NCBI GenBank assembly: GCA_016906335.1
Contig: JADEYG010000003.1
Coordinates: forward strand, 1,364,001 to 1,428,000
Length of the DNA: 64,000 nucleotides
Direction of reading: 5' to 3'
Source: Novakomyces olei
Taxonomy: Eukaryota
Shown piece by piece: positions 5,459 through 64,000 of this stretch. Within the stretch, counting starts at the first letter, position 1; every line of letters starts with the position of its first letter. Under the pieces are notes generated by a model. The model worked only from the letters and a program-made list of their open reading frames with translations. It ran no database searches and was not told the origin of the DNA. The position numbers and the translations under genes were made by a program.

Positions 5459-6514
5459 ATGAACAATAACGTTCTTGAAGAGGGGAGGCAGCGCAAGCGA
5501 TACGCGCTGGACAGCGGTAAGTTCCAATGTGTTGTGTGCACTCGACAGTACACCCGAAAGCACGACCGCGACCGTCACATGGAGATGCACGACCCTGATC
5601 TGGTTGGCTGGGCCGAAGAGTGGTTTAAGGAGGAAGACCGACCGAACAAACAGTTGGCGAGAGACATTTTTACTCTGCTCGCATCGGTTGATTTCGAAAA
5701 GCTCAAGCCCCATAGCGAAAGGTTTGTTTTCGATTGCAAGCCAACATGGGCACATGTCTTCGAGGACCTTTTGGAGGATGAGACAGCTTTGTTTATGGAC
5801 ATACGGGTTCGCGTGCATGATGACGAAATACGAATCGCCCAGGTCCTCGCATCATTCGTCCAGCCGGGGACTACGAGATACGCAGCCTACAATTTGAGGC
5901 CGATCAGCGAATACGGTTTATCGTCAGTGGGCCTTCGCGCGCAAGGATTGTTGAAGGAAAGTTATTTGAATGAACTTGGATGGAACGGGACTGCCACACC
6001 GTCGGGCACAATCACGGACGTTCACGTGGATCCGGTTCTGTGCGAAACCGTCATTGTGGGAATTCTTGGGAGAAAGCTGGTCTTTACGTGGGCCAATTCA
6101 GAGGCCAATTTACAGAAGTTGGAGCCCTATCATCGCAGGCCAGGAGACTTTATATTACCTGAAGCTCTTCGCAGCCTCGAAGGGTTAAAGATTGGAGTAC
6201 TAGAGCCGGGAGTTATTTTTCGATTAAGGTCTGGGACACCACATGCGGTGATGTCTTTTGAGAAAGCAGTCTTGATGGGTTACTATATTGCTAGCGAAGA
6301 CCAGGCTTTATACCGAGTGGCAAAGTGGGAATCGTCGTGGGCTAGTACACAGTTCCCAACTATTCGAGACGAGGTAAAGGAAGATCACGAACGTTGCTTG
6401 ATGGCATATCGTGATTGGGCAGGAGAAGACAGCAGGAGACAAGGCTGGTACAAAAAGGCACAGGCGGCAGTGTCTACGTTTTTGGAAGAGGAGGATAGTG
6501 TCATATCAATATGA
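5459..6514 (+). CDS. ORF3: C2H2 zinc finger plus JmjC-like 2OG/Fe(II) dioxygenase (putative histone demethylase-like)
   Basis: RQRKR basic patch; FQCVVCTRQYTRKHDRDRHMEMH; GTITDVHVD (H 6023, D 6029) ... GRKLVFTW ... LEPG...GTPHAV (H 6242). Start put at ATG 5459 by alignment with the GyC and GyE homologs; the ORF track start at 5282 adds an AT-rich extension. Confidence 0.85.
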   Translation: MNNNVLEEGRQRKRYALDSGKFQCVVCTRQYTRKHDRDRHMEMHDPDLVGWAEEWFKEEDRPNKQLARDIFTLLASVDFEKLKPHSERFVFDCKPTWAHVFEDLLEDETALFMDIRVRVHDDEIRIAQVLASFVQPGTTRYAAYNLRPISEYGLSSVGLRAQGLLKESYLNELGWNGTATPSGTITDVHVDPVLCETVIVGILGRKLVFTWANSEANLQKLEPYHRRPGDFILPEALRSLEGLKIGVLEPGVIFRLRSGTPHAVMSFEKAVLMGYYIASEDQALYRVAKWESSWASTQFPTIRDEVKEDHERCLMAYRDWAGEDSRRQGWYKKAQAAVSTFLEEEDSVISI

Positions 6515-14783: not shown

Positions 14784-14823
14784 CTTTTCTTTTCCGGCAG
14801 CTATGACAAAATGATTTTCATGG

Positions 14824-34225: not shown

Positions 34226-34452
34226 ATGGGAATGCTAAGCGAGCTCCCTATTCGGGCGACGACCTTCAACTTTCGTCACCCACGCGAAACTAAGACTCAA
34301 CTCTTAAAGTGATTTATTGATTTATTGATTATACCGCGATTATTATTGTTTAAATTATTACGAGAAAATTATACAAAAACATATTCAATTACTTGTCGAA
34401 CAAATAATATGGGACAACGCAAGGAGGAATGGCTGTTGAGTCACGCACACAA

Positions 34453-38710: not shown

Positions 38711-38937
38711 TTGTGTGCGTGACTCAACAGCCATTCCTCCTTGCGTTGTCCCATATTATTTGTTCGACAAGTAATTGAATATGTTTTTGTATAATTTTCT
38801 CGTAATAATTTAAACAATAATAATCGCGGTATAATCAATAAATCAATAAATCACTTTAAGAGTTGAGTCTTAGTTTCGCGTGGGTGACGAAAGTTGAAGG
38901 TCGTCGCCCGAATAGGGAGCTCGCTTAGCATTCCCAT

Positions 38938-41900
38938 TTAAGAACCAGGTTTGTTCGGGTGTGCACGGTGGAATTCGTTTACCAAATCCATGCAGTTGTG
39001 TAAATGTTTCGCAGGCTCCCACGTGCGGTCGGAGGCGTCGTAGCCTTTCCAATGCACATAATATTGAAGTTGCTTGCGTCGGATGCGCGAGTCTAGAACT
39101 TGCTCGACTTCCCATTCCGGGTTAGCATCCAATATAACTGGCGGTGGTGGCGCGATCTGTTCTCGCGCGATCTGCGACACTGCGTTATGTCGCTCTAGCA
39201 ATGAAGCGTGGAAGACAGGATGTATACGCATTGCCTTCGGTAGTTCCAAGCGATATGCACGCAAACCAACGCGTGCGATAATCCTAAACGGTCCCAGCTT
39301 CTTGGCATCCAGCTTATCGCATGGCCGCGTAGTGCTAATATTTTTTCGCACTAGCCAGACTTGATCGCCAATAGCAAAACTTTTGTCGACGCGATGCTCA
39401 TTTGCAAAGCGCGCCTGGTCGCTGAGAGACTTTTCGATTTCGACTTTCAATAAGCGATGTAGATTCCGTAGGTATTCGATACGTTCATCCGCGGATGGGC
39501 ATTGTCGCGAAGATGAAATCGTAAAGCGACATTTCGGGTTGTAGCCGTAAAAAGCGTAAAACGGTGTTGTCTTTGTAGACGACTGCTCTGAATTGTTGTA
39601 CGCGAATTGAGCAAAAGGTAACAAATTGACCCAATTGCTTTGCTGATAGTTGCTGTAGATCCTCAGATATTGCTCTAAGATCTGGTTAAGCCTCTCTGTT
39701 TGGCCGTCGCTCTGTGGGTGGTACGCGGTAGACAACTTCTGCTGTATATCGCATTGCGAAAGCAAGTGTCGTGTAAACTGCGATACAAATACCGAACCCC
39801 TGTCAGAGACTATTTCGTCTGGTAGGCCATAGTTGGCAAATACGCGATGGGCGTAAATCAAAGCTAGCTCAGTAGCCTTAATAGATTCGCGTATTGGTAT
39901 AAATATTCCGATTTTCGTAAATCGACAGGTGATTACCCATATGGAGTCGTAGGTTTTTTGTGTAATCGCATCGCGCGACTCCGGTAATTTCACAATGAAG
40001 TCCATTGAGATACTTTCCCAGGGTCTCGCTGGTACTCTCAGTGGGTGTAGTAGTCCATACGGTGCATGTCGCGAAGGCTTGTTTCGCGCACAAGTATCGC
40101 ACGACTCGACGTAACTAAATATCTCTTTTCGCATGCGTGGCCAATAGTAGTTTCGCATGACTAAGTCCAACGTTTTGGCCTGGCCAGGGTGACCCGCGAC
40201 ATGCGAATCATGGCATGTCTGTAGTATAGCTAATCGCAAACGATTGTCGTTTGGGATGTATAGCAAACCCGAAAACGTTAGAAGACCCTTTTCGTTTATA
40301 CTGTAGTTTCGCAGATGTTCCGACACTGGCTGCTTGCCGAGGTCCTCCATGACAACCTTGCAAGTCTTGTCTTTACCGTAACATTGTTTAATCTGATCAT
40401 CAATGCCTGTATCTTCTGCGGTCGCGAACAGGAAGTGCGATCTGTCCAATAGTGCCATAGTTCGCTCTGGTTTCTCCTGTTCCTTATCGCCGACATAATC
40501 GCTTCGCCTAGACAAGGCATCCGCTTTGTGATTTAGCTTTCCAGCACGGTATTCAATAACGAAATCATAGGAAGCGATCAATTGCGACCATCGCATCTGT
40601 CTACGGCTAAGTACTCTTGCTGTAAGAAAGTACATGAGATTGCGGTGATCCGTATAAATTGTAGTGCGATGTAACGGACTCTCCAGGTAAACTCGCCATT
40701 CGCGAAGACATGCGACAATAGCTAACAGCTCTTTGTCGTAGATATCATAGTTTACTTCCGCGCTAGTCATTTTTCGCGAGTAGAACGCGATGGGTCTCAT
40801 TTCGTCGCTGTTGTCTTTCTGCGAGAGAATCCCACCGATCGCGAAGTCCGATGCGTCGGTTTCCAAATAACTTGGCTTCTGCGGGTCGAAATGCGCAAGG
40901 ATCGGCGCACCCAGAAAAGCGTTCTTCAGAGTTTGGAAAGAGTCAATGCACTCCTTGGAGAAATTAAACTGCGCATCCTTCTTCAGTAAGCGGGTGAGAG
41001 GGATGGTAATTTTGCTGTAGTTTGCAATAAATCTGCGATAGTAATTTGATAGGCCTAAGAACGACATAACGTCTTTCGCGTTCTTGGGTTCAGGCCATGT
41101 CTCAATAGAATCAACTTTCGCTTTCTCCATAGACACTCCTTTCGTAGAGACAACAAAGCCTAGGAACTCTGTCGTGTCTGTGTGGAACTCGCATTTCTCT
41201 AGTTTCACAAATAAGTTTGCTTTGCGAAGTCGTTTCAGTACTTCGCGAACATGCGTCACATGCTCCTCCTCGGTGTCCGAATAGATCAAGATGTCGTCCA
41301 AGTATACAACAGCAAAGCGATCCAGACAATCGCGTAATGTGTCGTTCGCAAGAGCTTGGAAAGATGCCGGGGCGTTCGTGAGCCCGAAAGGCATAACCTG
41401 ATATTCGTAATGTCCATAACGCGTACGGAAGGCGGTTTTCCACTCGTCGCCTTCGCGTATACGGACAAGATTATACGCGCCACGGAGATCTAATCGCGTA
41501 AATATCGTCGACTGACGAATGCGATCCAATAGCTCCGATATGAGCGGCAGCGCATAGCGATTTTTGACAGTTACCGCGTTTAGCCCGCGATAATCTACGC
41601 ACAGTCTCAGCGAACCGTCCTTCTTTTTCACAAAAAGAATTGGAGCCCCCGCGGGCGATGAAGACGGCCTAATGAATCCCTTCGCTAGAATGTCTTTAAT
41701 GTAGTCGCGTAGTGTTTGTAGCTCGCGTTCGGCCAGAGGATATATAGGCCCGAACGGCGGCTTCGCGCCTTCTGTCAACGGTATTGCGTGATCCCACGCC
41801 TGATGCTGTGGTAGAATGTCTGCATTTCTTTTCTCAAAAAGATCGCGAAAGTCTGCATACTCGGGAGGTATAGCGACGTTTTTGTCCTCGCTTTTAGCGT

Positions 41901-42489
41901 CGGTCGCGTATACGCACAGCAATCCCGAGTCGTTGCCTCGCGATAGCTTAGCAAATTCCGTCGCACTGATTTGCGATGGTTCGTCTTGTGCCTCGGGCTT
42001 CTTGAGGCAGTTTGCTAAGCAATAGGAAGACTCGAATTCGACTTTTGCACGTCTCCATGCAATCCTTGGCTCATGTTTGTCGAGCCATGGCTTTCCTAAA
42101 ATAACGTCGTGTCCAGAGAGCGGTATCACGTTAAACATCATAGTCTCGCGATGTTCGCCTATGGTGACCTCCATGTTTTCAGTCTGGAAGCGAACACCTC
42201 CGGTGCGAATCGCTCTTCCATCCACAACTCGTAGTGGCTCAATCTTCGCCTTCTTCGTTATATCGATTATGCTTCTCGTAGCAAGGCTCTGGCTGATAAA
42301 ATTCGACGTCGCGCCTGAGTCGATCAGCGCCTTCGCGTCCAGCTGGCCCTTGCTAGTTCTCAAATTTGCAGTAACTGTGAGATGTATTCCTCTGTCAGGT
42401 TCGGGTACCACTGACATCACCTCCGAAAGCCTCGTGTCATTAACGCCCAGATCAGGCCTTTCTTTTAGACCTGGGCTCTCGCTTTTCCC
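38938..42489 (-). CDS. pol: GyB2 Pol
   Basis: Intact, nearly identical to GyB1 Pol. Confidence 0.94.
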   Translation of the reverse strand, partial: GKSESPGLKERPDLGVNDTRLSEVMSVVPEPDRGIHLTVTANLRTSKGQLDAKALIDSGATSNFISQSLATRSIIDITKKAKIEPLRVVDGRAIRTGGVRFQTENMEVTIGEHRETMMFNVIPLSGHDVILGKPWLDKHEPRIAWRRAKVEFESSYCLANCLKKPEAQDEPSQISATEFAKLSRGNDSGLLCVYATDAKSEDKNVAIPPEYADFRDLFEKRNADILPQHQAWDHAIPLTEGAKPPFGPIYPLAERELQTLRDYIKDILAKGFIRPSSSPAGAPILFVKKKDGSLRLCVDYRGLNAVTVKNRYALPLISELLDRIRQSTIFTRLDLRGAYNLVRIREGDEWKTAFRTRYGHYEYQVMPFGLTNAPASFQALANDTLRDCLDRFAVVYLDDILIYSDTEEEHVTHVREVLKRLRKANLFVKLEKCEFHTDTTEFLGFVVSTKGVSMEKAKVDSIETWPEPKNAKDVMSFLGLSNYYRRFIANYSKITIPLTRLLKKDAQFNFSKECIDSFQTLKNAFLGAPILAHFDPQKPSYLETDASDFAIGGILSQKDNSDEMRPIAFYSRKMTSAEVNYDIYDKELLAIVACLREWRVYLESPLHRTTIYTDHRNLMYFLTARVLSRRQMRWSQLIASYDFVIEYRAGKLNHKADALSRRSDYVGDKEQEKPERTMALLDRSHFLFATAEDTGIDDQIKQCYGKDKTCKVVMEDLGKQPVSEHLRNYSINEKGLLTFSGLLYIPNDNRLRLAILQTCHDSHVAGHPGQAKTLDLVMRNYYWPRMRKEIFSYVESCDTCARNKPSRHAPYGLLHPLRVPARPWESISMDFIVKLPESRDAITQKTYDSIWVITCRFTKIGIFIPIRESIKATELALIYAHRVFANYGLPDEIVSDRGSVFVSQFTRHLLSQCDIQQKLSTAYHPQSDGQTERLNQILEQYLRIYSNYQQSNWVNLLPFAQFAYNNSEQSSTKTTPFYAFYGYNPKCRFTISSSRQCPSADERIEYLRNLHRLLKVEIEKSLSDQARFANEHRVDKSFAIGDQVWLVRKNISTTRPCDKLDAKKLGPFRIIARVGLRAYRLELPKAMRIHPVFHASLLERHNAVSQIAREQIAPPPPVILDANPEWEVEQVLDSRIRRKQLQYYVHWKGYDASDRTWEPAKHLHNCMDLVNEFHRAHPNKPGS

Positions 42490-43412
42490 GGTTCCGTGAT
42501 ACTGTCCATAACCACCGAGATGCGTTGCTCATAATTGCGTTGCTTCTGTTTGCAATCACGTGCGCGATGACCTTCGCGTCCGCACGTAAAACATCTGTTC
42601 TCTTTCTTTCGACGCTGGCGTTCGTCGCTGGTAATGCTCTTCTTTTCGTAACTGGTAGCATCTACCTCCATGGGAGTGTATCCCTTGTTCGCGATCGTCG
42701 CGCCCCTATAGCCTGAAGCGCCCTTGGCGTTCGTACGGCTAGCGCTTTCGTAGTAACGATCCGACAACCTTTCGTCCACGCGTACAGACTTCTCAATTAA
42801 GTCTGACAATGTACGCGATTTTTCCAACCGAGATAATTCGTCCTTAATTCGATCTTTCAATCCTTGATAATATTCGTAGCGTAAACTGTGATCGCTAAAA
42901 TCCAAGTGCGAAGTGATCTGCTGAAAACGCGAAGTATACTCAGCAACAGATCCTCGCTGTTTGAGCAATGCTAGCTCCCGCTCAGCCTGACTAATGCGGT
43001 CGACGCTCCCAAATGTCGTGGAGAGCTCGTCGCAAAACAGGGCAAAGTCACTGGTAATTAGGCTTTCATCGTGGTCGCGCAAGTGGGGTTCAAACCACGC
43101 AAAAGCGGCACCGCGCAGATAAGATACCGCAAACAGGACCTTCGCTTCGTCGTTGCGAAACTCATGTGGCTTGAGTCTCACGTATAAGCGAACCTGTGCA
43201 AGGAAAGTATCCACCGATCTGCGATCGCCTCTGAATGTATCCGGCTTCGAAATGCTTGGCCCTTCGCTGACTCCTGATCGTCGAGATCCCCGGGATCCCA
43301 TTTCCTGGCGAAGGCCTTCAATAACCGATTTGTCCTTAACGCGCTCCTCTTGGAGCGACGCGATCTGCGCCTGCAGCGTCTGCAGAAACGCGTTCAAGTC
43401 CTCTTGACTCAT
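42465..43412 (-). CDS. gag: GyB2 Gag
   Basis: Same translation as 29751-30698. Confidence 0.94.
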   Translation of the reverse strand: MSQEDLNAFLQTLQAQIASLQEERVKDKSVIEGLRQEMGSRGSRRSGVSEGPSISKPDTFRGDRRSVDTFLAQVRLYVRLKPHEFRNDEAKVLFAVSYLRGAAFAWFEPHLRDHDESLITSDFALFCDELSTTFGSVDRISQAERELALLKQRGSVAEYTSRFQQITSHLDFSDHSLRYEYYQGLKDRIKDELSRLEKSRTLSDLIEKSVRVDERLSDRYYESASRTNAKGASGYRGATIANKGYTPMEVDATSYEKKSITSDERQRRKKENRCFTCGREGHRARDCKQKQRNYEQRISVVMDSITEPGKARAQV

Positions 43413-44481
43413 CGTAATTCAATAATTCGTTTGTGCTGCTAAACCGTAGCAAAGCACCCTTCGTCGCAACAACTTAGTGCGAAATAAAACTTGTAAATCG
43501 AAATCTGTGTACGCCTCCGTGCGTGACACCTTTCAACGCCGTGTAAATCTGTAGCTTAGACGAGCTCACGGGCTTATAATAGTGTAAGGTGGCCCTTAGA
43601 GGGGAGCACCGCGGTATAAACTCGCGTGTCGCTACAGGCGAACACGGACTGTCCTTTGCGAGACCGCTCGACAAAGGAAGTTCAATCGGTTACCGCGCGA
43701 AGCGAGTACCGAGAAACGGGAACGTAGACTTGCGCCCGGCGCAAGAACTAAGGAAAAGGAAAAGGACGTTGTCCTTGAAAAGGCGACGGCGCTTCTCTAA
43801 AGCTTACCTGCTACAAGGCTATGTAGCAACTTTGAGATTATAAGCCCGTGGAGAGAGTTCTCTCCATGGGCGACTATGTAGACTATCCTATGAGGCTTAG
43901 CGGCTCGCTTAGCCACTTCGCGGCCTAAGCCTCATCCCACCACGATCTCAATGCGATGGTCCCAGACCATCCGCATTGGGAAAGCGGTGGCGAGCTATGA
44001 ACTCTATGGATCGATCTATCTAGCTTCGTAGCGATGCGCGATCGCTACTACTACTGTCATGCGCCGCGACGTGCCTACGTCGCGCGGGCATGGACGTGGA
44101 CCTGCTTCGCGCGAGCCAGGTCCAACCTGCTCGCGAGCTAGGCCACTTACGCGCTTCGCGCGAGTAATGTCCAACATTACCTCGCGCGAGCTATTTAGAT
44201 CTATCTAGCCTGAAGTCATCGCCTTTGGCGCTACAGGACTTCAGGCGTCGTTCGCTGTCGTGGTTCACGCGAGGCGGGGATCATGACATTAGGCTCCTTG
44301 GTGCGCGTGTTGGACACGATTCCATTAGCGGCGCGAAGTCGCTCACTAAGGCTCTGGTTTTCCGTTTCGAGTCTCTCGAGGCGAGCCGTCGTTTGCTCAA
44401 GAAACGATTGTATATGCTGATAATCCATCGTAAAAAGCTCGAAGAAAAAGTCACAGTCCCCGAATCGTGGACGTGTAATAC

Positions 44482-44900: not shown

Positions 44901-45121
44901 TGTCATGATCCTCGCCTTGGCGAGTCCCTGACAACCGCGTTGAGAAGCGAGGGGCGACGCCTGTAGTCGGACTTGGGATGTCCGCGCGTCGCAAGCTTCG
45001 CCAACGCGGCCCAAGACCAGTCGGCGCGTAACGCGATGGTCTTGGGACGTAGAAGTTGTCTTAGTGCGCATGTAGGTACGCGCACTAAGCCAGCTTGGCC
45101 CACGGGAGCGAGGGGCTCCAT
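44901..45121 (+). repeat. LTR of a GyB-related family, first part (continues at 58038-58141)
   Basis: Starts TGTCATGATCCTCGCC (GyB: TGTCATGATCCCCGCC); GC-rich and palindromic; split by GyC (TSD TCCAT) and again by GyE. Confidence 0.7.
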
Positions 45122-45462
45122 TGTTATGGGTCACAGTTCTGTGCTGAGTAAGTCTGGATAGGTTTGGCCAGTAACACGATGGCCGTGGCAGGGAGTCAGA
45201 GTAGGAGAAAGCAAATGGACTTAAACGCAACTAAACTCGTAACTGTAAAACTTCAGTAACTTCAAACTTCAAACTTCAATAACCGTCAAGTCTCAATAGG
45301 CGGCGTTGAAGGGCCTATTTATAGACTTGACTACTAACTAAACTAACAAGTACTATAGAACACTATAGAACTTTCTACGAACCGTGAGCTCAAGTAAACG
45401 GAAATACCGCAACTGAACTCTATTAGCGTTGGAAAACGCTAATTGATGTCATGCCTATGACA

Positions 45463-46494
45463 TTACTCCCCCTCTTCAAGGAGAGCCAATCCTGCTTTAG
45501 CGGCCAGTAAATGCTCTTCACTGCCGTTACCCCGTAACACCCATCTGGTGATTTCCTTCAAGCTGTTCTGATGATCTTCCGCGACTTGGAATCTCATGGC
45601 TAAGCTAGACTGTTTCGCCCAATTCGCTTCCCAGACGGTAAGCCTGCTCATGACCTTTGGAGTCTCCACCAGCGTATAACCCGTAATTGCGGCATCTGTC
45701 AAGGATATAACAGCATGTGGTGTTCCTCCAGGTAGCACAAAAACAGTTCCTGGCTTGACCTCGCCAATTCTGAGGCCTTTCAAACTCTTCAGGGCACTCG
45801 TTAACACAAAGTCACCAGGCTTTTGATGGTACTCCTCCGATGCTTTCAGCTCTTCGGGACCGTTATTCCACGCAAGTAGCAATTTCCATCCTAGCACTCC
45901 AACGATGACCTGTCGCGTGCACACAGAATCAATATGCACGTCCGTAATAGTTCCTGCGGGAGTAACTGTTCCCAACCAAGATCGTCCAACGATTCTCTTT
46001 CGTAGCTGACTCAATTTGTGCGGGCCACAAGACTTCAAGCCACTTGCACTTTCATGAGCCACATTGTAAACAGCGTATTTTGTTTTCAATTTGCCCATCC
46101 ACGATGCGACAACCTGAGATATGCGTACCTCGTCGTCATGAACACGAACTCTTGTATCCATAAAGTGTGCCGTTTTCGTCTCCATTACATCGTCAATCAC
46201 ATTTGGCCAATCGGGAGTTGTTGAGAAAGACTCCGAAATATCATCCTCAATTGGTTGCAAAATGTCGTATTCGTTGCGCGATAAATAAGCCAAGGTCTGG
46301 CGCGCAACGATGTTCTCCGTATTAGCGTTTTTCCACGCTTCCGCCCATTCTCGTAGCTTCTCCGGGTGCGAGGCTATATGTCGCTGTAGATCAAAGCTTC
46401 TCGTAAAGTGTCGCATGCAAACGTCGCACTCAAACTCTCCGCGATCTCGTTCGCCGCGCTTGCGCTTTTCCCCTCCTTCAACAGTTGCGGTCAT
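45463..46494 (-). CDS. GyC ORF3: C2H2 zinc finger plus JmjC-like dioxygenase
   Basis: EKRKR; FECDVCMRHFTRSFDLQRHIASH; GTITDVHID...GWKLLLAW...VKPG...GTPHAV; clear homolog of 5459-6514. The stop codon abuts the 3' LTR. Confidence 0.85.
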   Translation of the reverse strand: MTATVEGGEKRKRGERDRGEFECDVCMRHFTRSFDLQRHIASHPEKLREWAEAWKNANTENIVARQTLAYLSRNEYDILQPIEDDISESFSTTPDWPNVIDDVMETKTAHFMDTRVRVHDDEVRISQVVASWMGKLKTKYAVYNVAHESASGLKSCGPHKLSQLRKRIVGRSWLGTVTPAGTITDVHIDSVCTRQVIVGVLGWKLLLAWNNGPEELKASEEYHQKPGDFVLTSALKSLKGLRIGEVKPGTVFVLPGGTPHAVISLTDAAITGYTLVETPKVMSRLTVWEANWAKQSSLAMRFQVAEDHQNSLKEITRWVLRGNGSEEHLLAAKAGLALLEEGE

Positions 46495-49307
46495 GTTCAA
46501 AGCTGTTGGTCTGAACGTCCGATATATGTTTTGTCGAAGAAAATTTTTTCCGTAATATAGTGCAAATAACGTTAATCGCACTCAAATCACTAAATCGTGC
46601 AAATAGCGTAATATAACGCAATAATAAGTAATTGTGACACCACAGTAATTAAACTAATTAATAGTTCCATACTGCCTGTTTGTGCACAAGTAAAAATAAC
46701 TGTAAATAATAATAATAATAGTCAAGATCTCGAATTGGTTGAGCAGTTCAGAGATCTTACATAGGTCGTATAACTGTAAACAAATGTAAACCAAAATAAT
46801 CAAGCAGCCCTAGTCTGCCTTTGCCAATATTGCGCTACTGCATCCTGCGCGTGTTGTAAATTTCCAATTGGCTCCCAGGTGCGATCGTGCTCGTCGTATC
46901 CTTTCCAATGTACTAGGTACTTGCGTCCTCTTCCTCGTCCTGAATGATCACATATATGATCAACTTCATATTCTGTAGTATCCGTTAGGACGTCTGGAAC
47001 ATCTAGATCTGTTGGATCTCGTTCATAGGGATCTGGAATATACTTTTCCAGTAGACTCTCGTTAATCACGTCATGTATCTTAATGTCTGGTGGCAATGCA
47101 ATTCTGTAAGCATGCTCGCCAATCCGTTCCTTAATCTCAAATGGTCCAAGCTTGGTGTGATCAAGCTTATTCGACGGTCTCTCGCTCTATATATGCTTCC
47201 GTCTAATCCATACTTTGTCTCCAATATTAAATTGCATTGACGGCAATTTCTTCACATCGTAATGTCTCTTCGAATTTGTATTTGCATTTTTAATATTTTG
47301 TTCAACTGTCCGAAATAGTCCTGTCCAGTCGACAACAAAATTGTTTGCCGTGGGGTTTTGACTCTTAGGTGTTTCGAAAGGTAGCCCTCTGGGGTTATAT
47401 CCGTTACACACATAGAATGGTGCGTACCGTGTGCTTGCGCTAATTGCGTTGTTCAGCGCAAATTCCGCAAATATCAGTAATTCTCTCCAATTGTCTTGAT
47501 TAAAGTTCAAGTATGACCTCAAGTACTGTTCTAGTGTCTGGTTGGCTCTTTCAGTTTGGCCATCGGTCTGCGGATGATGACTTGTTGAATGTAATAGTTT
47601 CACTCCAAGATTATTCGTTAAACTTGTCCAAAATTTGCTGACAAACTTGGGATCTCGGTCCGAAACAATATCTTCTGGTAGTCCATGATACTTAAATATA
47701 TTTTCCATATAGAGTGTAGCAAGCTCCATTGCTGTCGTTGACTCTCGACACTGTATTAGATGTGTCATCTTCGAAAATCGATCTACCACAACCATAATTG
47801 AATCATAATTGTCCGAAGGTGGTAGCTTTACAATAAAATCCATTGATACTGATTGCCATGGCCTTGTTGGTACTCGTAGCGGTTGTAAATATCCTGTTGG
47901 TTTGTGACGCGAAACCTTGCTTCGTATGCATGTTGCACACGAGTTCACATAATGTTTTATATCATTCTTCATATTTGGCCAATTAGCAACTCTTTTCGCT
48001 AATTCCAAAGTTCTCTGCTGTCCAAAATGTCCGGCCAGGGGATGGTCGTGACATGCTTGTAAAATCTTCTTCTTTTCCTCCAATGAAACATGATCAATCG
48101 TATTAACTTCAATTCTCTTTGGGTCGATCAAGGGCTTTGTGCTATGATAATCAATTCCTTTGACATCGTTCAAATCTGGACGTCTACTCAATGCGTCCGC
48201 TGCTGTATTCATAGACCCTTTTTGATAGCGTATTTTAAAATCGATTTGACTTAGTATTTCTGACCATCTTGCTTGCCGTCGTGACAGTTGTTTCGTAATA
48301 GTAAATGCTTGTAAATTCTTATGATCAGAGTACACAATTATCGGCTTAGGATGGCCTTGCAAGTAGTGTCTCCAAATCTTAAATGCGTAAACAATTGCCA
48401 ACAACTCTTTGTCGTGTATGTCATAATTCACTTCAGCTGGTTCTAGCTTTCGACTAATGAAAGCCACTGGTCTTCGAACTCCATCATAGTCTTGCATTAA
48501 TGCTGCTCCGATCGCAAAATCTGATGCATCTGTCTCCACAATGCATTCGCGCTCCTGATCGTAATGTTCCAATAGCACTTCGTCTCCGAATGCTCTCTTC
48601 AATGTTTCGAAAGCGATTTGTTGTTCGTCACTCCACGCAAATTCCGTTCTTTTACGCAAGAGTCTTGTAATAGGCAATACGATCTTGAAAAATCGTTGAT
48701 AAATCGCCTGTAATAGTTGCAGAGTCCTAAAAATGATTGTACTTCCTTGACATTTTTGGGTGCCGGCCATTCGTCAATTGGCCTCGTTTTGTCCTTGCAC
48801 ATAGACACTCCTTTGTCTGATAAAACATAACCAAGGAATTCGACTAGATTCCTATGGAATTCGCATTTGCTCTGCTTCGCAAATAACTTCTTCTCTCTTA
48901 GTCGTTTCAAGACTTCTTTAACATGACAAACATGTTATTCGTAGGTTTTGGAGTAGATCAGTATGTCGTCCAAATATACCAAAACGTAATCATCTAATGT
49001 GTCTCGAAATATATCGTTCATTAGATTCTGGAATGTTGCCGGTGCATTCGTTAATCCAAAAGGCATTACACGATACTCGAAATGTCCAAATCTTGTTCTG
49101 AATGCAGTTTTCCATTCATCTCCGCTTCGAATTCGTATAAGATTATATGCGCCTTTTAAGTCGATCTTCGTAAACACTTTGCTTCCACATAATTTGTCAA
49201 TCAACCCATCTATTCTTGGTATGGGATATCTGTTTTTCACTGTTATCGCGTTTAACGCTCGGTAATCAACACATAGTCTTAAGCTTCCATCTTTTTTTTT
49301 GACAAAT

Positions 49308-49607
49308 TGTTAAGTGAGGATTACTCACTGTTGTAACAATATAAATTAGACCTAGCTAAGAGATCTATCTTTCAGACTATGGGAAGTTGGGTCCTTTTAT
49401 AGACTTTTTGTGAAGCAGATAGGACGGAGATAGGAAGGAGATAGGAAGGAAATAGGAAGGAAATGATGAGTAATGATGATGAATCATTGATGAGTAATGA
49501 TGACTCATTGATGAGTAATGATGATTAATCATTGATGAGTAATGATGACTCATTGATGAGTAATCAGTCTTGATTAGATTTGATTAGATCAATCTTGATT
49601 CCTAACA
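49308..49607. repeat. Solo LTR (300 bp) in GyC RT with internal tandem repeats
   Basis: TGTTA...TAACA; TSD CAAAT at 49303-49307 and 49608-49612; repeated GATGAGTAATGATGA units at ~49464-49564. Confidence 0.88.
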
Positions 49608-50339
49608 CAAATAAAATTGGTGCGCCTGCGGGTGACTTAGATTTGCGTATGAAACCCTTTTCCATGTTCTCTTCAATATACTTCAATAATTCTCGCTGTT
49701 CATCGGCTGATATATTGTAAATTGGTCCAAATGGTGCTTTGGATCCTTTTTCCAAAATAATCTCATGATCATAAGCTCTGTGTGGCGGTAATTGGTCCGC
49801 TCCTTCTTCGTCAAATACGTCTTTGAATTCTTTGTATTCTCTAGGAAGTCTCGTTTCCTTAGCGGTAATTGCGTTACTCTGCGCAAATTGCAAATAGGCG
49901 TAAATAGGCTTGTCGTCAATTCTGTCTTCTTCAAATTTCAACTCTTTGGTCACCCAATTGATATTCGGGTTGTTCTCTCGTAACCATTGTATTCCCAAAA
50001 TGACATCGCGTCTTCCACTGTCTGCAACATAAAACTTCGTTGGTGTAATTTTGTTTGCAATTCTGATGTCCAGTCTTTTTGTTGTACATACAACTGGTCC
50101 TGATGATTGTTGTGTTTTTCTTTGTTTGGTTTGGGTACGGCTGTGTTGCTTTCACGGCAACTGTGGTGGGAAGCCAAATGGAAGGTAATAGTACTTAAAA
50201 CGGTTTACACGGTCAACACGGTCGATAATCAGCGTCGGATAAAAGTGCGAACGGGCCTCCTTTTATCCTTGCTGGAACTAACTAACTATAACTAAAAATA
50301 GAAACAACTACGGAAAAGACTGTCTAAGCCACAAAGTGG

Positions 50340-51464
50340 CTAACTAAAATTCCGGAATTGGAAATAATCCGCAATCGAACGGATTATCTCCGATAAAAAC
50401 GGAATTATGTCATATTGATATGACACTATCCTCCTCTTCCAAAAACGTAGACACTGCCGCCTGTGCCTTTTGTACCAGCCTTGTCTCCTGCTGTCTTCTC
50501 CTGCCCAATCACGATATGCCATCAAGCAACGTTCGTGATCTTCCTTTACCTCGTCTCGAATAGTTGGGAACTGTGTACTAGCCCACGACGATTCCCACTT
50601 TGCCACTCGGTATAAAGCCTGGTCTTCGCTAGCAATATAGTAACCCATCAAGACTGCTTTCTCAAAAGACATCACCGCATGTGGTGTCCCAGACCTTAAT
50701 CGAAAAATAACTCCCGGCTCTAGTACTCCAATCTTTAACCCTTCGAGGCTGCGAAGAGCTTCAGGTAATATAAAGTCTCCTGGCCTGCGATGATAGGGCT
50801 CCAACTTCTGTAAATTGGCCTCTGAATTGGCCCACGTAAAGACCAGCTTTCTCCCAAGAATTCCCACAATGACGGTTTCGCACAGAACCGGATCCACGTG
50901 AACGTCCGTGATTGTGCCCGACGGTGTGGCAGTCCCGTTCCATCCAAGTTCATTCAAATAACTTTCCTTCAACAATCCTTGCGCGCGAAGGCCCACTGAC
51001 GATAAACCGTATTCGCTGATCGGCCTCAAATTGTAGGCTGCGTATCTCGTAGTCCCCGGCTGGACGAATGATGCGAGGACCTGGGCGATTCGTATTTCGT
51101 CATCATGCACGCGAACCCGTATGTCCATAAACAAAGCTGTCTCATCCTCCAAAAGGTCCTCGAAGACATGTGCCCATGTTGGCTTGCAATCGAAAACAAA
51201 CCTTTCGCTATGGGGCTTGAGCTTTTCGAAATCAACCGATGCGAGCAGAGTAAAAATGTCTCTCGCCAACTGTTTGTTCGGTCGGTCTTCCTCCTTAAAC
51301 CACTCTTCGGCCCAGCCAACCAGATCAGGGTCGTGCATCTCCATGTGACGGTCGCGGTCGTGCTTTCGGGTGTACTGTCGAGTGCACACAACACATTGGA
51401 ACTTACCGCTGTCCAGCGCGTATCGCTTGCGCTGCCTCCCCTCTTCAAGAACGTTATTGTTCAT
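50340..51464 (-). CDS. GyA2 ORF3: C2H2 plus JmjC-like
   Basis: Same as the GyA1 ORF3 except a 1-bp loss in an A-run near 50468 that changes only the C-terminal tail; catalytic motif intact. Confidence 0.83.
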   Translation of the reverse strand: MNNNVLEEGRQRKRYALDSGKFQCVVCTRQYTRKHDRDRHMEMHDPDLVGWAEEWFKEEDRPNKQLARDIFTLLASVDFEKLKPHSERFVFDCKPTWAHVFEDLLEDETALFMDIRVRVHDDEIRIAQVLASFVQPGTTRYAAYNLRPISEYGLSSVGLRAQGLLKESYLNELGWNGTATPSGTITDVHVDPVLCETVIVGILGRKLVFTWANSEANLQKLEPYHRRPGDFILPEALRSLEGLKIGVLEPGVIFRLRSGTPHAVMSFEKAVLMGYYIASEDQALYRVAKWESSWASTQFPTIRDEVKEDHERCLMAYRDWAGEDSRRQGWYKRHRRQCLRFWKRRIVSYQYDIIPFLSEIIRSIADYFQFRNFS

Positions 51465-51715
51465 TGTCCGTAAATTTGCGGATTTGATGTCTAAGTTGCG
51501 GATTTGGTGGGGGTAGCCCACATATATATAGACTTCGTTATACTTGACTTCGACAAGTAATAATTCTTTGACGTTCCATAAAAATAATAATGATAATAAT
51601 AGTATATACTTAATTATTTTATTAAGTAATAGTCGTAGCATAGAATAACAATAAAAGCAATAATATAGATATATCTGATCCGTATCTTAGCGGATTATGT
51701 GTTGATATTGCGGAT

Positions 51716-54700
51716 TCAATGTTTTTGGTTATTCCAGTATGCTTTAACTGCCTCTGTTGCATTTGTCAGGTTTCCAAAAGGTTCCCATGTACGGTCTTGT
51801 ACTCCATAACCTTTCCAATGCACTAAATATTTGCGGTTTCGGCCTCTGCCTGTATGATTGCAAATGTAATCGACTTCGTATTCAGTCGTGTCCACTAGAA
51901 CATCGGGAACGTGTACATCTGTTGGGTCTCTCTGAAATCGGTCTGGTAAACATTTTTCCAGTAAAGTTTCATTAAATACGTTGTGTATTTTGATATGTTG
52001 GGGAAGCTCAATCCTGTAAGCGCTATTTCCTATAGCCTCAATAATTTTGAAAGGTCCCAGTCTTGTATGATCTAGTTTATCCGATGGTCGCTCGCTGTGT
52101 ATGTGTCTTCTCTGGATCCACACGTTGTCTCCAGGCACAAATGTATTTGCTGCTGTTTTCTTTTTGTCATAATGTAGCTTTGATACTTTATTTGCAGATT
52201 GAATGTTGCTTTTGACTCGTTCAAATAATTCGTTCCAGTCTCGTGTAGTTTGATTTGCTGCTGGATTGTCACTCTGGGAAGTTGTGATCTGTATTCCCTT
52301 TGGATGATAACCGTTGCAAATGTAAAACGGTGATAGTCTTGTACTGCTGTTTGTTGCATTGTTCATTGCGAATTCCGCAAAAGACAATAGCTTGCTCCAA
52401 TTGTTTTGGTTGTAATTGACATAGGCTCTTAAGTATTGCTCGAGTGTTTGATTGGTTCTCTCAGTCTGTCCATCTGTTTGTGGGTGGTGACTCGTCGAAT
52501 GCAATAGCTTAACTCCAAGGTTCTGGTACATGCCTTGCCAAAATTTGCTCAAAAACTTTGGATCTCTGTCTGATACGATTTCATTTGGTAGTCCGTGGTG
52601 TTTAAATACCTTGTCAATGTATAGTCTCGCTACATCCGTTGCTGTGGATGATTCTTTGCAAGGGATTAAATGACACATTTTAGAAAATCTGTCAACAACC
52701 ACTAGTATTGAATCAAAACCTTCGGATTCGGGAAGTTTAACGATAAAATCCATTGAAACAGATTCCCATGGTCTTGACGGTACTTGTAGCGGGTTTAATA
52801 ATCCTGCAGGTTTCTTCCTCGATTTCTTGCTTCTCCAGCACGTCGCACATGATGCTACGTAATCCCTAACATCCTACGACATATTTTTCCACTTCTTAAA
52901 ACGCTGTACTAGTTCTAACGTTCGATGTTGTCCAAAATGTCCTGCTAATGGGTGATCATGGCATGCTCGCAATATTTCCAGCTTCTCGTCCGTATCTATA
53001 TGTTCGAGTGTTGTCATACTTAGATCAAATCTTGCTGGATCGATCAACGGCTTATCAATTTAGTATTCCTTCAAGTCAACATTATTAAAATCAACTCTTC
53101 TGCTCAACGCGTCTGCTGCTGCGTTTCCTGATCCTTTTCTGTATCGAATCTTAAATTCATATTCTCCTAATAGTTCCGACCAACGTGCTTGTCTCCTCGA
53201 TAGTTTCTTTGTCGTAGTAAACGTCTGCAAGTTCCGATGATCAGTATATACAATAATTGGCTTTGGATGTCCTTGCAAATAGTGTCTCCATATTCCGAAT
53301 GCATAGACAATCGCAAGTAACTCTTTATCGTGTATATCATAATTGATCTCGGCTGGTTCAAGCTTTCTGCTTATAAAAGCAATCGGTCTCTTTTCGCCTC
53401 CTTGTTCTTGTAACAGTACGGCTCCTATAGCGAAATCTGAGGCATCTGTTTCGACAATGCACTCGAGTTCTGGATCGTAATGCTTTAACGTAACGTCTCT
53501 TCGAAAGCTGTCTTTCAATTGTTCAAAAGCCTTCTCTTGGTCTGCTCCCCAGCTAAATGTATTATCCTTCTTTAATAGACTTGTTATTGGTGTCACAATC
53601 TTTGAAAATCCAGGAATGAATCTTCTGTAATAATTGCATAGTCCAAGAAACGACTGTACGTCCTTGACGTTCTTTGGTGTGGGCCAGTCATTAATAGGCT
53701 TGGTCTTGTCCGAGCTCATCGAAACTCCTTCTGTCGATATAATAAATCCTAGAAATTCCACTTTTGTCTTGTGAAATTCACATTTGCTTGCCTTTGCGAA
53801 CAGCTGTCTTGCTCGTACTCGCTTAAACACTTCTCTGGCATGCTGTATATGTTCCTCTTTATTTCTCGAGTAAATGAGGATGTCATCCAGATAGACTAAG
53901 ACATATCTATCCAGGATATCTCGGAATACGTCATTCATAAGGTTTTGGAAAGTTGCTGGCGCATTAGTGAGTCCAAAAGGCATCACTCTGTATTCAAAAT
54001 GTCCGTATCTTGTACGAAATGCGGTTTTCCACTCGTCGCCATTTCGAATACGTATCAGATTGTAAGCGCCTTTCAAATCGATCTTAGTAAATATACGACT
54101 TCCACTTAACTTATCGATGAGTCCATCAATTCTCGGAATAGGATATCGATTCTTGACTGTAATCGCATTTAGTGCTCTGTAGTCCACGCAGAGTCGTAAG
54201 CTCCCGTCCTTCTTTTTCACAAACAATATGGGTGCTCCTGCTGGTGACTTCGATTTTCTGATGAATTTCTTATACAAGTTTTCCTCAATATACTTGAGCA
54301 ACTCTCTCTGCTCGTCTGCAGATATGTTGTAGATAGGTCCAAAAGGTACCTTCGATCCCTTTTCCAATATTATTTCATGATCATAGCTTCGATGCGGTGG
54401 CAATACGTCTGCTCGTCTCTCATCGAATACATCACGATAGTCTTCATATTCTGTAGGAATTTGGGGGATTTTTCCAACGTTATCGCTTTCCGGTTTTTCG
54501 GGAAAAAATCCGCTCTCTTGCGGCACTTGTGTTTCATCCGCAAAACTTGCCTTTAATCCGCTCGTCTGCGTGCAAGTTGCGTCTGCATAATCTTGCTCTG
54601 TATTCTGTACTTCAAATGATAATGTACGATTCTTCCAATCAATAATGGGATTGTTCTCTTGCAACCATTGAATACCCAAAATGATGTCTCTCTGGCCAAT

Positions 54701-55041
54701 ATCTGCCACATAAAATCTCGTAGGTGTAACACAATTTCCTATCTTCATGTCCATAATCTTCGTAGTTCTCGCCACGGGTCCTGATGCCAGGCTTCGGCCA
54801 TCGACAACCTGTATCACAATTGGTCTCTGAAGTCTTTCTGTCTTTAGATTCAAATTCAATATTAATCGCGGGTGTATGAAATTTAGGTTCGCTCCTGAAT
54901 CCACTAAAGCTTTTCGTCTAAGCCCATTTATTTGGACGTCCGTCTCCAATGTCTCACTCCAGTATCTCGTCGTCTTTCAGTGGCTTTTAATTCAGCTTGT
55001 CCTAGAGAAACCACTTCTTTCTCTAGGCGAAATCTTTTCCC
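51716..55041 (-). pseudogene. pol: GyA2 pol
   Basis: Same two in-frame stops as GyA1 (near 53060 and 52875) plus a 1-bp deletion near 54949. Confidence 0.9.
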
Positions 55042-56033
55042 GAGTCGTCGCTCAACTCGTTCGTCGTCATTGCAGCTTGACGGCTTACAAACGGAATTCT
55101 CTTTTCTTTGCACTCTTTTGCAATATGCCCTTTCTTCTGGCAATTATAACACTGTACGTTTCTGTTGTCGTGACTTCTCTCTCTTTCTCTCGCGTCTCTC
55201 GCGTCTCTGTAATTCGTCTTGTGCTCTCTGTCATTCGTCTTGTACTCTCTTGCGGGTCTGCCTGCTCCTCTGGCACCGGCAACCGCCAAATCAATTTCCA
55301 TCGGTGCAGTCGTCTGGTTACTTCTGCCCGTAAATCTCGGCTCATAATACGTTCTCGGTTCGTAACTTGTTCTCTGTCTCTCTTTACGTCTCTCAAATAG
55401 ACGATTATCAATACTGATCGTCATCTCGATCATCTCTCGCAAGGTACTAGGCTCTGTCGTTCTTGCCAATTCGTCCTTAAGCCTGTCGCTAAGGCCCTCG
55501 TAGTACTGCGAAATCAACGCTTCTTCGTTCCAGCTAAAGTTCGCTCTGAGTCTGTCAAACTCGGCTGCGTACTGAGCAACAGCTCCAGACTGCTTCAGAT
55601 TGCGAATTTGCTTCTGCGCCTGCTTTCTAATATCTCGATCACCAAACATCTGTAGGAATGAATCACAAAACGTCTCAAAATCGTTGAGTATTCCTTCGTT
55701 TTCCCCTAGGATGTGAGGCTCAATCCACCTGAACGCGGTTCCTCGCAAATAGGTTGCTGCAAACGTGACCTTCTGGCGGTCCGATCCGTATCTCGAGGGT
55801 AGTGCGTCGGTTATCATTTTCACTTGGGTGATAAATTCACGAGCCTTAGCTCTCTCGCCAAAAAACAAAGGTGGCGGGGCTAACTTGGGCTCCCGGTTGA
55901 ACGTCGCATGTCGACTCTCCTGATCGTTTTCCAATTTGACCTTCAGCATCATGTTCTCATGCTCCAGTAGCTGTAACTTCGCTGTTGTTTCCTCAACAAA
56001 TTGGTTCAGACGATTCATGTCGACACCTTCCAT
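55023..56033 (-). CDS. gag: GyA2 Gag
   Basis: Nearly identical to 889-1899. Confidence 0.93.
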   Translation of the reverse strand: MEGVDMNRLNQFVEETTAKLQLLEHENMMLKVKLENDQESRHATFNREPKLAPPPLFFGERAKAREFITQVKMITDALPSRYGSDRQKVTFAATYLRGTAFRWIEPHILGENEGILNDFETFCDSFLQMFGDRDIRKQAQKQIRNLKQSGAVAQYAAEFDRLRANFSWNEEALISQYYEGLSDRLKDELARTTEPSTLREMIEMTISIDNRLFERRKERQRTSYEPRTYYEPRFTGRSNQTTAPMEIDLAVAGARGAGRPAREYKTNDREHKTNYRDARDARERERSHDNRNVQCYNCQKKGHIAKECKEKRIPFVSRQAAMTTNELSDDSGKDFA

Positions 56034-56614
56034 GACGAACGGCTCGGCACCACAACGTGGGCTGATTATACTGTTGTGTTTTTCTTTGTTTGGTTTGGGT
56101 ACGGCTGTGTTGCTTTCACGGCAACTGTGGTGGGAAGCCAAATGGAAGGTAATAGTACTTAAAACGGTTTACACGGTCAACACGGTCGATAATCAGCGTC
56201 GGATAAAAGTGCGAACGGGCCTCCTTTTATCCTTGCTGGAACTAACTAACTATAACTAAAAATAGAAACAACTACGGAAAAGACTGTCTAAGCCACAAAG
56301 TGGCTAACTAAAATTCCGGAATTGGAAATAATCCGCAATCGAACGGATTATCTCCGATGAAAACGGAATTATGTCATATTGATATGACAATGATAGACTT
56401 CTTCCATCCACTTCTTGGATTATAATCGGCTTCTCGATTCGTTCTGTTTCCAACCTCAATCTGTGTACTAGTCTCGGATGCATAAAATTCAAATTTGCTC
56501 CTGAGTCAACTAACGCGTTCGTATTCTTTCCTTCCACATTTATTCTCACTTCCAAATGTGCCGTATCTGTTTCAGTGGTTTCTTCTTCAGGCCATAAAGA
56601 AGCCACTTCCTTCC

Positions 56615-57655: not shown

Positions 57656-58555
57656 TGTCAGACTCAGTACCACTTCGCGGGACGGTTATACTGTTATGGG
57701 TCACAGTTCTGTGCTGAGTAAGTCTGGATAGGTTTGGCCAGTAACACGATGGCCGTGGCAGGGAGTCAGAGTAGGAGAAATCAAATGGACTTAAACGCAA
57801 CTAAACTCGTAACTGTAAAACTTCAGTAACTTCAAACTTCAAACTTCAATAACCGTCAAGTCTCAATAGGCGGCGTTGAAGGGCCTATTTATAGACTTGA
57901 CTACTAACTAAACTAACAAGTACTATAGAACACTATAGAACTTTCTACGAACCGTGAGCTCAAGTAAACGGAAATACCGCAACTGAACTCTATTAGCGTT
58001 GGAAAACGCTAATTGATGTCGTGCCTATGACATCCATGCACAATGTGCACGGACCTCGCTTCCCGTTTTAATTCTCGCACGCTAGCGAGTGCGACCCTTC
58101 GCACTCCGCTAGCGCGAGAACATTCATAGTTATTTCCATAGTGTCAGGGGTTGCTTAGAAAGGTGCTAGGAGCACCTGAGTAAGCAACTTCGTAGTTTAG
58201 TTTAGTTAGTTTATTTAGTTGTATTGTAGGAAGTTGCTTAGAGTAGCGCTTGGAGCGCAGACTCTAGCACTTCTACAATAAGTTAGTTACTTTAGTAGTT
58301 TCGTAGAGTGGGATCTTCGGCAAGTAACGAGCCGAGCCCAAGTATAAGAAGAGGAGTTCTTCTACTGGGTTCGGGGCGTTACAACAACCAAGGTTCCGCT
58401 TAATATAAGTGTCTTGAGATTAGTTCTTCTATCTGCCTATCCTTTTGCTATTCCCTGTCAAGGCCAACGTGTGATCTTGGCCGACTTAAGATTACTTTGT
58501 ATTGAGTCACCCCCTAACAGTTTGTAACGCCCGCGACTGACACCGGGTAGCAAAG

Positions 58556-63466: not shown

Positions 63467-64000
63467 ATGAGCGAGAATGAAGCTGTTGGGAATAAGCGCA
63501 AGCCCCGCAACTCGGGTGCTAACGAATGCGCTATATGTGGACTAAGGATATCGCGTATTCAAGACGTGCGAAGGCATGTGGCAACGTGCCACAAAGAAGG
63601 GACGGTTTTGCCGATTCAAGAATTTCGAGAGAACGCGAAGAAGTCGGATAACTTCACGGCTGGGGAGTCAACTTTAAGGGCCCTCCAACGTTTCCAGTCA
63701 GGAGCCAGGGCTCCGCTGACGGCCCCTTACCTAGGGATCACTATCGAACACATTATCTGCGACTTGTGGAAGAATGAAGGGTGCAACTTGATCAGCCCTA
63801 TTACGGGTTGCGAGGACGAGGATTACAAAGTGAGCAGGTTTTTCGCAGATTGGGCGGACCGACACGCAAATCCACTGGCGGCTTATAACATTGCGCCGAC
63901 AGAGGAAGGAACTTTGCTGCTGCTAGAGCCATTGCCAGAGCACAAAGGAAACAGTACGAATTGGTCGTCGACCATGACACCTGCCGGGACATTTACAAAC
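63467..64000 (+). CDS. GyE ORF3 (partial): C2H2 finger plus start of JmjC-like domain; absent from the ORF track
   Basis: My translation of 178 open codons to the edge: MSENEAVGNKRKPRNSGANECAICGLRISRIQDVRRHVATCH...LAAYNIAP...WSSTMTPAGTFTN. Aligns with AAYNL...WNGTATPSGTITD of GyA and WLGTVTPAGTITD of GyC. Confidence 0.78.
   Translation, partial: MSENEAVGNKRKPRNSGANECAICGLRISRIQDVRRHVATCHKEGTVLPIQEFRENAKKSDNFTAGESTLRALQRFQSGARAPLTAPYLGITIEHIICDLWKNEGCNLISPITGCEDEDYKVSRFFADWADRHANPLAAYNIAPTEEGTLLLLEPLPEHKGNSTNWSSTMTPAGTFTN

Follow-up and report, generated by a model that had tools for sequence, protein, structure and literature searches.

Genes beyond gag and pol are rare in retrotransposons with long terminal repeats (LTRs), and few of them have a predicted biochemical activity. 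The aORFs of plant elements (PMC7264820) and an ALKB-type 2-oxoglutarate (2OG) oxygenase domain in Ty3/Gypsy elements of orchids (PMC9289625) have been reported as extra coding regions of LTR elements. VANC of the Arabidopsis VANDAL elements is reported to be an element-encoded protein that relieves the epigenetic silencing of its own family in a sequence-guided manner (PMC5735166, PMC10398659), and fission-yeast Epe1 to be a JmjC protein that counteracts heterochromatin marked by histone H3 lysine 9 methylation (PMC7192584). Here we describe ORF3, an accessory open reading frame (ORF) in GyC, a Ty3/gypsy chromovirus in a 64,000-nucleotide stretch of Novakomyces olei DNA (GenBank assembly GCA_016906335.1, contig JADEYG010000003.1, positions 1,364,001 to 1,428,000 of the forward strand). 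This whole stretch is called the window, and coordinates are counted from its first letter.

Extra ORFs in such elements are already known; of interest here is a JmjC accessory gene in an LTR retrotransposon. No paper on such a gene was found in the literature, which was searched without most subscription journals, and JmjC was absent from the matched passages of PMC8365987 and PMC3248453. Our reading, which we hold with good confidence, joins the anatomy of GyC, the predicted fold of the ORF3 protein, purifying selection on the gene, and its survival as a small target in a copy with a broken pol.

ORF3 abuts the 3' LTR of GyC

ORF3 lies on the minus strand at 45463..46494, with the ATG at 46492-46494 and the TAA at 45463-45465, and encodes 343 residues with a basic KRKR stretch at the N-terminus, one C2H2 zinc finger and a JmjC-type domain. 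The frame is uninterrupted, as the earlier note on this DNA had stated, and runs from stop to stop over 45463-46581. Its final four codons (E-E-G-E) coincide with the polypurine tract GAAGAGGGGGAG (45466..45477, minus strand), and the LTR begins directly after the TAA. In the sibling element GyA, the ORF3 frame crosses the equivalent polypurine tract and stops 16 nt within the LTR. The end of ORF3 is thus built into the border between polypurine tract and LTR, so that any mRNA for ORF3 would have to share its 3' LTR end with the genomic RNA.

Predicted fold and ligand set of the ORF3 protein

The N-terminal zinc finger (46366..46428, minus strand) has the spacing CX2CX12HX3H, with C23, C26, H39 and H43 as its cysteines and histidines. 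C23, C26 and H39 are invariant in three copies in the window, as is H43 in an alignment started from the methionine. The Pfam model zf-C2H2 stayed below its cut-off on GyC ORF3 (E 0.0025, 18.6 versus 25.2 bits).

We searched for homologs of the protein by several routes. A word-index protein search with ORF3 gave no match at E<=0.001 among 5088 candidates of near length, and none at E<=1e-5 among 8000 scored candidates of greater length; the latter search also gave no pol-JmjC fusion, which is weak evidence. When the three window sequences were used for an exhaustive HMMER search, 582 proteins were retrieved at E<=1e-3, 54 at E<=1e-10 and none at E<=1e-30. Many of these matched in multiple stretches, all within the zinc-finger part of the profile (approximately positions 4-77), and 25 of 30 single-stretch matches had no Pfam family at E<=0.01. 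The named homologs come from Crepidotus variabilis, Tilletia horrida and T. walkeri, and are annotated as hypothetical or as "JmjC domain-containing" proteins.

In an alignment of 40 sequences, H187 was invariant, and D189, K204, H260, G181, G202 and W209 were at least 90% conserved. The profile of this alignment gave 22 matches in the Protein Data Bank (PDB) at E<=1, the top 14 of which (E 3e-14 to 4.5e-6) were all ceKDM7A, KDM2A, KDM7/JHDM1D, PHF8 or PHF2. T184 (H-3), H187, D189, K204 (H+17) and H260 (H+73) aligned with the TDFHVD, KGEK and IHAV motifs of ceKDM7A. We take these five residues to be the iron and 2OG ligand positions of JmjC enzymes. All five fall within the putative double-stranded beta-helix core, at approximately residues 140-276 (45667..46077, minus strand). 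The HxD...K...H positions are present in both GyC and GyA ORF3, and the fragment from the third element, GyD, ends upstream of them.

The AlphaFold (AF2) model of ORF3 had a predicted local distance difference test score (pLDDT) of 93.3 and a predicted template modelling score (pTM) of 0.90, with the beta-helix strands as modelled. A Foldseek search with this model returned only JmjC proteins at the top, with those of the KDM2/7 type first (E ~1e-11, probability 1.0). Structural comparison with VIA-align placed KDM2, KDM7, PHF8 and PHF2 at Z scores of 17-18 and a root mean square deviation of 3.6-3.9 for 264 residues over positions 60-343, and this subfamily filled the top 23 rows. JMJD5 aligned with a Z score of ~16 over residues 76-276 only. 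In the ESM Atlas, the top cluster was "JmjC domain-containing protein" (score 0.96, 199 of 256 features). ORF3 is thus predicted, from profile and model, to be a JmjC 2OG/Fe(II) oxygenase of the KDM2/7 structural type with the full ligand set, from a divergent family of fungal proteins that goes mostly unrecognised by Pfam. The earlier note had also assigned ORF3 to JmjC; the profile (E 3e-14) and the fold (Z 17-18) bore the assignment out, whereas the Pfam thresholds were not reached.

The conservation of the ligands argues for retained catalysis. ORF3 could instead oppose silencing non-catalytically, in the manner reported for Epe1; it would then bind proteins of heterochromatin or bring in activators, and two Epe1 papers (PMC7192584, PMC6317313) do describe a JmjC protein with non-enzymatic anti-silencing activity. 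We consider this alternative quite improbable, as the family and the two complete copies in the window retain every Fe(II)/2OG ligand position, and no interaction motif was identified in ORF3. A second alternative, that ORF3 is an active JmjC oxygenase that hydroxylates or demethylates a non-histone substrate such as Gag, integrase, a host factor or nucleic acid, seems unlikely to us, although less so than the first. The fold is shared by the JMJD5 hydroxylases and by FIH, which appeared in the Foldseek list; Pfam detected no histone-reader domain of the PHD, CXXC or Tudor type in ORF3; and the orchid Ty3/Gypsy domain is reported to be an ALKB-type RNA demethylase (PMC9289625). However, the best matches by profile and by fold are all lysine demethylases of the KDM2/7 type, and the KDM2/7 alignment takes in the helical C-terminal domain as far as residue 343, while that with JMJD5 stops at residue 276. 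A KDM2/7-type oxygenase remains our preferred prediction.

ORF3 homologs in sibling elements

A tblastn search of the window with GyC ORF3 gave four matches, namely ORF3 itself, the two copies of GyA, and 63494-64000. GyC and GyA ORF3 are 41.8% identical over 318 residues (E 3e-79 and 6e-79 for the two GyA copies), and the third homolog is 24% identical over 180 residues (E 4e-8). In GyA copy 1, ORF3 occupies 5459..6514 on the plus strand (351 residues, 42% identical to GyC ORF3); in GyA copy 2, it starts with an ATG at 51464 on the minus strand and extends to ~50413, and a homopolymer close to its end differs by 1 nt. The third homolog is the start of the GyD ORF3 (63467..64000, plus strand, 178 residues), which is cut by the end of the window. 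It begins 529 nt 3' of the pol stop of the intact GyD gag-pol (58541-62938, 1465 residues).

ORF3 thus has the same position and strand in three diverged elements, between the chromodomain-bearing integrase and the 3' LTR. The earlier note had proposed a homologous ORF3 at the same place in GyA, and the search confirmed it; the blocks that it listed as shared (FMDxRVRVHDDExRIxQVxAS, TPxGTITDVHxD, PGDFxL and GTPHAV) all recur in our alignment. Its remark that the GyC LTR differs from that of GyA also held, with only remote similarity between the two (gapped score of 43 versus -3 +/- 7 for 100 shuffles). GyB, a fourth chromovirus family in the window, has no ORF3 homolog in its gap of ~850 nt between pol and LTR (best tblastn E 2.5). 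When the spacers between pol and ORF3 of GyC, GyA and GyD were aligned, no conserved promoter, splice or other motif was found.

Over 172 shared columns, ORF3 identity was 0.42 for GyA and GyC, 0.24 for GyA and GyD and 0.27 for GyC and GyD, and the corresponding pol identities were 0.67-0.81, 0.55 and 0.55-0.72. The rank order of ORF3 divergence among the three elements is therefore that of pol. In a tree of 40 ORF3-family sequences, GyA and GyC were sisters (SH-aLRT 100). The data are compatible with one single capture of ORF3, short of proof.

Selection on ORF3

We measured selection on codon alignments of GyA and GyC. Silent sites were saturated in every gene, with synonymous divergence (dS) of 1.2-3.1 by LWL85 and 3-16 by maximum likelihood, and NG86 and YN00 gave no ratio of nonsynonymous to synonymous divergence (dN/dS) because of this saturation. 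The dN values were 0.30 for gag, 0.24 for protease, 0.12 for reverse transcriptase (RT), 0.23 for RNase H-integrase and 0.55-0.60 for ORF3, and LWL85 gave a dN/dS of 0.19 for ORF3. Identity in ORF3 was 0.54, 0.63 and 0.33 at codon positions 1, 2 and 3, respectively. At its 62 fourfold sites, identity was 0.23, compared to 0.26 expected by chance.

Silent sites have thus been randomised while codon positions 1 and 2 are conserved, which indicates long purifying selection and speaks against a recent capture. The dN/dS comparison that the earlier note had suggested as a check could be made to this extent: as the protein was kept while its silent sites were randomised, a value near 1 is excluded, and an exact figure is not obtainable. 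The same note had seen in ORF3 a long-standing component of this clade, passed on vertically and kept by selection, and the shared position, the polypurine tract, the common rank order and the saturated silent sites all agree with that view.

We also consulted assembled contigs from three public sequencing runs (X1, X2 and X3), whose contigs do not show copy number, rare variants or absences. All three contain a short paralog contig that is ~85% identical to ORF3 codons 234-280. At least 21 differences separate the two, and those listed affect 18 codons, of which 10 are changed synonymously and 8 nonsynonymously.

Relatives outside the elements and chance capture

A metagenome scan with a five-sequence alignment of the ORF3 family yielded eight loci. 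In three of them (L001, L003 and L004), 13 ORFs were compared with Pfam; no retroelement family was found, and one ORF, in L004, encodes a GT90 glycosyltransferase. L001 carries a decayed gypsy RT motif (1168-1421 of that locus) ~2.5 kb 5' of an intact 442-residue ORF of the JmjC family (3860-5188) on the same strand. This spacing resembles that between RT and ORF3 in GyC, and there is no RNase H or integrase relic between the two.

Several observations weigh against the joint reading, and they concern the domain, the selection, the inheritance and the wider family. No Pfam JmjC model (PF02373, PF08007) reached threshold on GyC or GyA ORF3; GyC ORF3 gave just Cupin_1, at 17.2 bits versus a cut-off of 22, and GyA ORF3 gave no family. 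Only one of 30 scanned homologs (P0001) passed JmjC_2 (PF08007, 24.4 versus 22), and another (P0002) stayed below the cut-off. The saturation of dS prevents a precise dN/dS estimate for ORF3, and its nonsynonymous rate is about twice that of gag and integrase. In the 40-sequence tree, the 178-residue GyD fragment sits on a long branch in an unresolved polytomy, and a forced grouping of GyA, GyC and GyD ORF3 is not rejected by the AU test (p-AU 0.40, at a cost of 1.1 log-likelihood units), which is no proof of monophyly. None of the eight metagenome loci had a gypsy pol by tblastn with GyD gag-pol, apart from the one weak RT relic of L001, and a scan of five loci (L001-L004 and L006) gave no direct repeats resembling LTRs. 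With neither LTRs nor gypsy pol at these loci, the wider family is mostly not demonstrably transposon-borne. The ORF3 family is known chiefly from stand-alone fungal genes, one of which was probably captured by this chromovirus clade.

These points also bear on the idea that ORF3 does nothing for the element, being either a host gene picked up recently by chance or a frame that merely happens to be open. Relatives outside recognisable gypsy elements would fit it, as would the failure of Pfam to name the domain. However, the gene is found at the same place in three diverged element lineages, the polypurine tract is part of the coding frame in GyA and GyC alike, the predicted fold is of high confidence, and conservation of the protein with saturated synonymous sites contradicts the idea. 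We give it hardly any credence and retain the reading of ORF3 as a long-selected gene of the clade.

Anatomy of GyC and its surroundings

The whole window is a nest of retrotransposons, and GyC is a full insertion on the minus strand. Its 341-bp LTRs, both of the TG..CA form, lie at 57692..58032 (5' LTR) and 45122..45462 (3' LTR, with 2 mismatches to the 5' LTR, at 45211 and 45451; 99.4% identical). They are flanked by the target-site duplication ATGGA, whose downstream copy is at 45117..45121 (flank sequence, minus strand) and whose partner is at 58033-58037. Contigs of X2 and X3 run from 45116 directly to 58033 with five shared letters, which is the empty site and confirms the borders of GyC.

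The order in element orientation is 5' LTR, gag, pol, a 305-nt AT-rich spacer, ORF3 and 3' LTR. On the minus strand, gag (56615-57685) contains Retrotrans_gag, Ty3 capsid and zinc knuckle domains by Pfam; the start of pol (56390-56614) was located by tblastn with GyD gag-pol; the remainder of pol (46800..50102, Pfam and tblastn) covers protease, RT, RNase H, integrase, SH3 and chromodomain; and the spacer (46495..46799) separates the pol stop from the ORF3 start. Pfam recognised protease, RVT_1, RNase H, the zinc-binding and core parts of integrase, SH3 and the chromodomain in the pieces of pol. The gag and pol domains, including the chromodomain, identify GyC as a chromovirus. Its domain order (gag, protease, RT, RNase H, integrase, C-terminal chromodomain), seen by Pfam and by colinear tblastn matches to GyD, is the chromovirus one, as are the TG..CA LTRs, the 5-bp duplication and the polypurine tract at its ends.

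In the runs, the DNA flanking GyC (45000-45116 and 58033-58200) reached very high contig depth and contained the empty site, which indicates that GyC inserted within another repeat. That repeat is possibly the 5' LTR or leader of GyD, in which case GyD, GyC and GyA would form a three-deep nest. Elsewhere in the window, two inverted copies of GyB (28875-35777 and 37384-44299) are 100% identical, with LTRs of ~707 bp and an intact pol of 1196 residues (30635-34225 and 38938-42528). Several Ty1/copia elements with RVT_2, integrase and gag pre-integrase domains are nested at 6720-27724 and 10600-15828 as near-identical copies. These young copies bear no sign of repeat-induced point mutation.

Lesions in the pol of GyC

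We mapped the pol of GyC by tblastn with the intact 1465-residue gag-pol of GyD, and the matches fell in three frames. Two in-frame stops were found, a TAG at 47187-47189 and a TAA at 48935-48937, together with a frame change near 48680-48695. An insertion of ~300 bp at 49309-49607 is rich in tandem repeats and has no second copy in the window. The protease region is interrupted by GyA copy 2 (50108..56389, minus strand, 6282 bp, target duplication ATCAT). The earlier note had counted two insertions, two stops and one frameshift in this pol, and all of them were recovered.

A contig of X2 joins 50102 to 56390, with 255 letters on its shorter side, and thus represents GyC without the nested GyA, whose insertion was therefore a late event. 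Over 45427-49336, a contig of X1 showed no difference from the window, which means that the window assembly is not alone in showing these stops and this frameshift; X1 may, however, be the window's own sample. The insertion at 49309-49607 is rich in two tandem motifs, and its contig depth in X1 is ~30-fold above that of GyC; a solo LTR, a miniature inverted-repeat transposable element (MITE) and a satellite are candidates for its identity.

Why ORF3 is intact in GyC

The near identity of the LTRs implies few substitutions in ORF3 since insertion. From the divergence of 2/341, ~3 substitutions are expected in ORF3 and ~13 in gag-pol. Nonsense changes make up 4.8% of single substitutions in ORF3, and the probability of no nonsense mutation in ORF3 is 0.86. 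When lesions were assumed to be evenly spread over the 4300 nt of gag-pol and the 1032 nt of ORF3, the probability that none hit ORF3 was 0.34 for five lesions and 0.52 for three point lesions. The intact ORF3 of GyC thus needs no special cause beyond a recent insertion and a small target. For the survival of the gene in a dead copy, the earlier note had offered either function in trans or a smaller mutational target; the second stands, and survival as a telling sign of function does not.

At least two nonsense mutations in gag-pol are mildly unexpected for a copy of this age (P 0.11). This excess suggests that some of the pol lesions predate the insertion and were probably inherited from a defective progenitor. 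GyC is a young, pol-defective and probably low-copy chromovirus of the GyA/GyC/GyD clade. A comparable history is seen in GyA. Its two window copies have identical LTRs and different target duplications (ATATG and ATCAT), and they share a TAA and a TAG in the integrase zinc-binding region (3861-3863 and 4047-4049 in copy 1; 53060-53062 and 52874-52876 in copy 2). Contigs have a sense codon at 52876 in X1, X2 and X3, and at 53062 in X1 and X2. The shared stops, the different duplications and the sense codons in the contigs together point to a pol-defective GyA variant that was copied in trans.

We also considered whether this copy of GyC is itself still under selection, either supplying the JmjC protein in trans to other elements or having been domesticated by the host. 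ORF3 is open next to five lesions in gag-pol, and with defective elements mobilised in trans in this genome, trans products do matter. However, chance suffices, given the 0.34 probability of sparing ORF3 and the ~3 substitutions expected in it, and contigs of the GyA family also have lesions in ORF3, namely at least a 2-nt deletion at 50940, a 114-nt skip from 51228 to 51343 and a 1-nt difference at 50467. Such lesions, a partial record drawn from contigs only, indicate inserted copies without visible protection. Selection on this particular copy is therefore highly unlikely in our view, and chance survival of a small target is the better account. That an accessory ORF has stayed open in a single broken, young copy does not testify to selection; a comparison between lineages does.

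Compared with copy 1 and all run contigs, GyA copy 2 differs by one base in two homopolymers, at 50467 (T4 versus T5) and 54947 (TT versus TTT), and the former shifts the last ~25 codons of its ORF3. Both differences may be assembly errors. Contigs of X1 and X2 also contain a joint from 51841 to 56072 that skips 4230 nt, from the inner end of the GyA 5' LTR to the chromodomain end of pol. With 29-30 letters on its shorter side, this joint is a weak indication of a deletion derivative made up of LTR, end of pol, ORF3 and LTR.

Proposed function and comparison with known systems

The ORF3 gene was probably acquired before the GyA, GyC and GyD lineages split, and purifying selection, acting on the lineage as it transposes, has kept it since. 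Its protein may enter the nucleus, where the zinc finger could guide it and where it would remove repressive histone lysine methylation at copies of the element. ORF3 would then be a self-encoded anti-silencing "eraser", the partner of the integrase chromodomain as "reader". We put forward nuclear, finger-guided, anti-silencing histone demethylation by ORF3 as a tentative proposal, possible but somewhat less than probable. More doubtful is a wider prediction, in which the clade encodes a finger-guided KDM2/7-like eraser along with a chromodomain reader, elements that integrate into methylated heterochromatin could reopen their own copies, and the protein acts in trans, so that pol-defective GyC and GyA copies both supply it and benefit from it. 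A conserved JmjC oxygenase of the demethylase type that selection has kept in two diverged chromovirus lineages of fungi at least, and probably in a third, would be a candidate means of countering silencing by heterochromatin.

By profile and by fold, ORF3 is closest to the KDM2/KDM7 proteins (JHDM1, PHF8, PHF2 and ceKDM7A), including the helical domain after the barrel, at a sequence identity of just 11-16%. The PHD, CXXC, F-box and LRR modules of these proteins are all missing from ORF3, whose 343 residues leave no room for them. In contrast to KDM2/KDM7, ORF3 is much shorter, has one N-terminal C2H2 finger and is encoded by a retrotransposon.

ORF3 resembles the plant aORFs, as these are reported, in being additional coding DNA on the sense strand that is placed between pol and the 3' LTR and retained within a lineage. 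Like the orchid ALKB domain, it is a predicted 2OG/Fe(II) oxygenase; unlike that domain, it is of the JmjC rather than the AlkB type, belongs to an element of a fungal host, and is a separate ORF with a zinc finger instead of a domain of the polyprotein. Epe1, likened here by its published description and not by sequence, is a host gene whose function ORF3 is proposed to mimic. The logic proposed for ORF3 is that reported for VANC, which differs in belonging to a DNA transposon, in not being of the JmjC type and in acting on DNA methylation.

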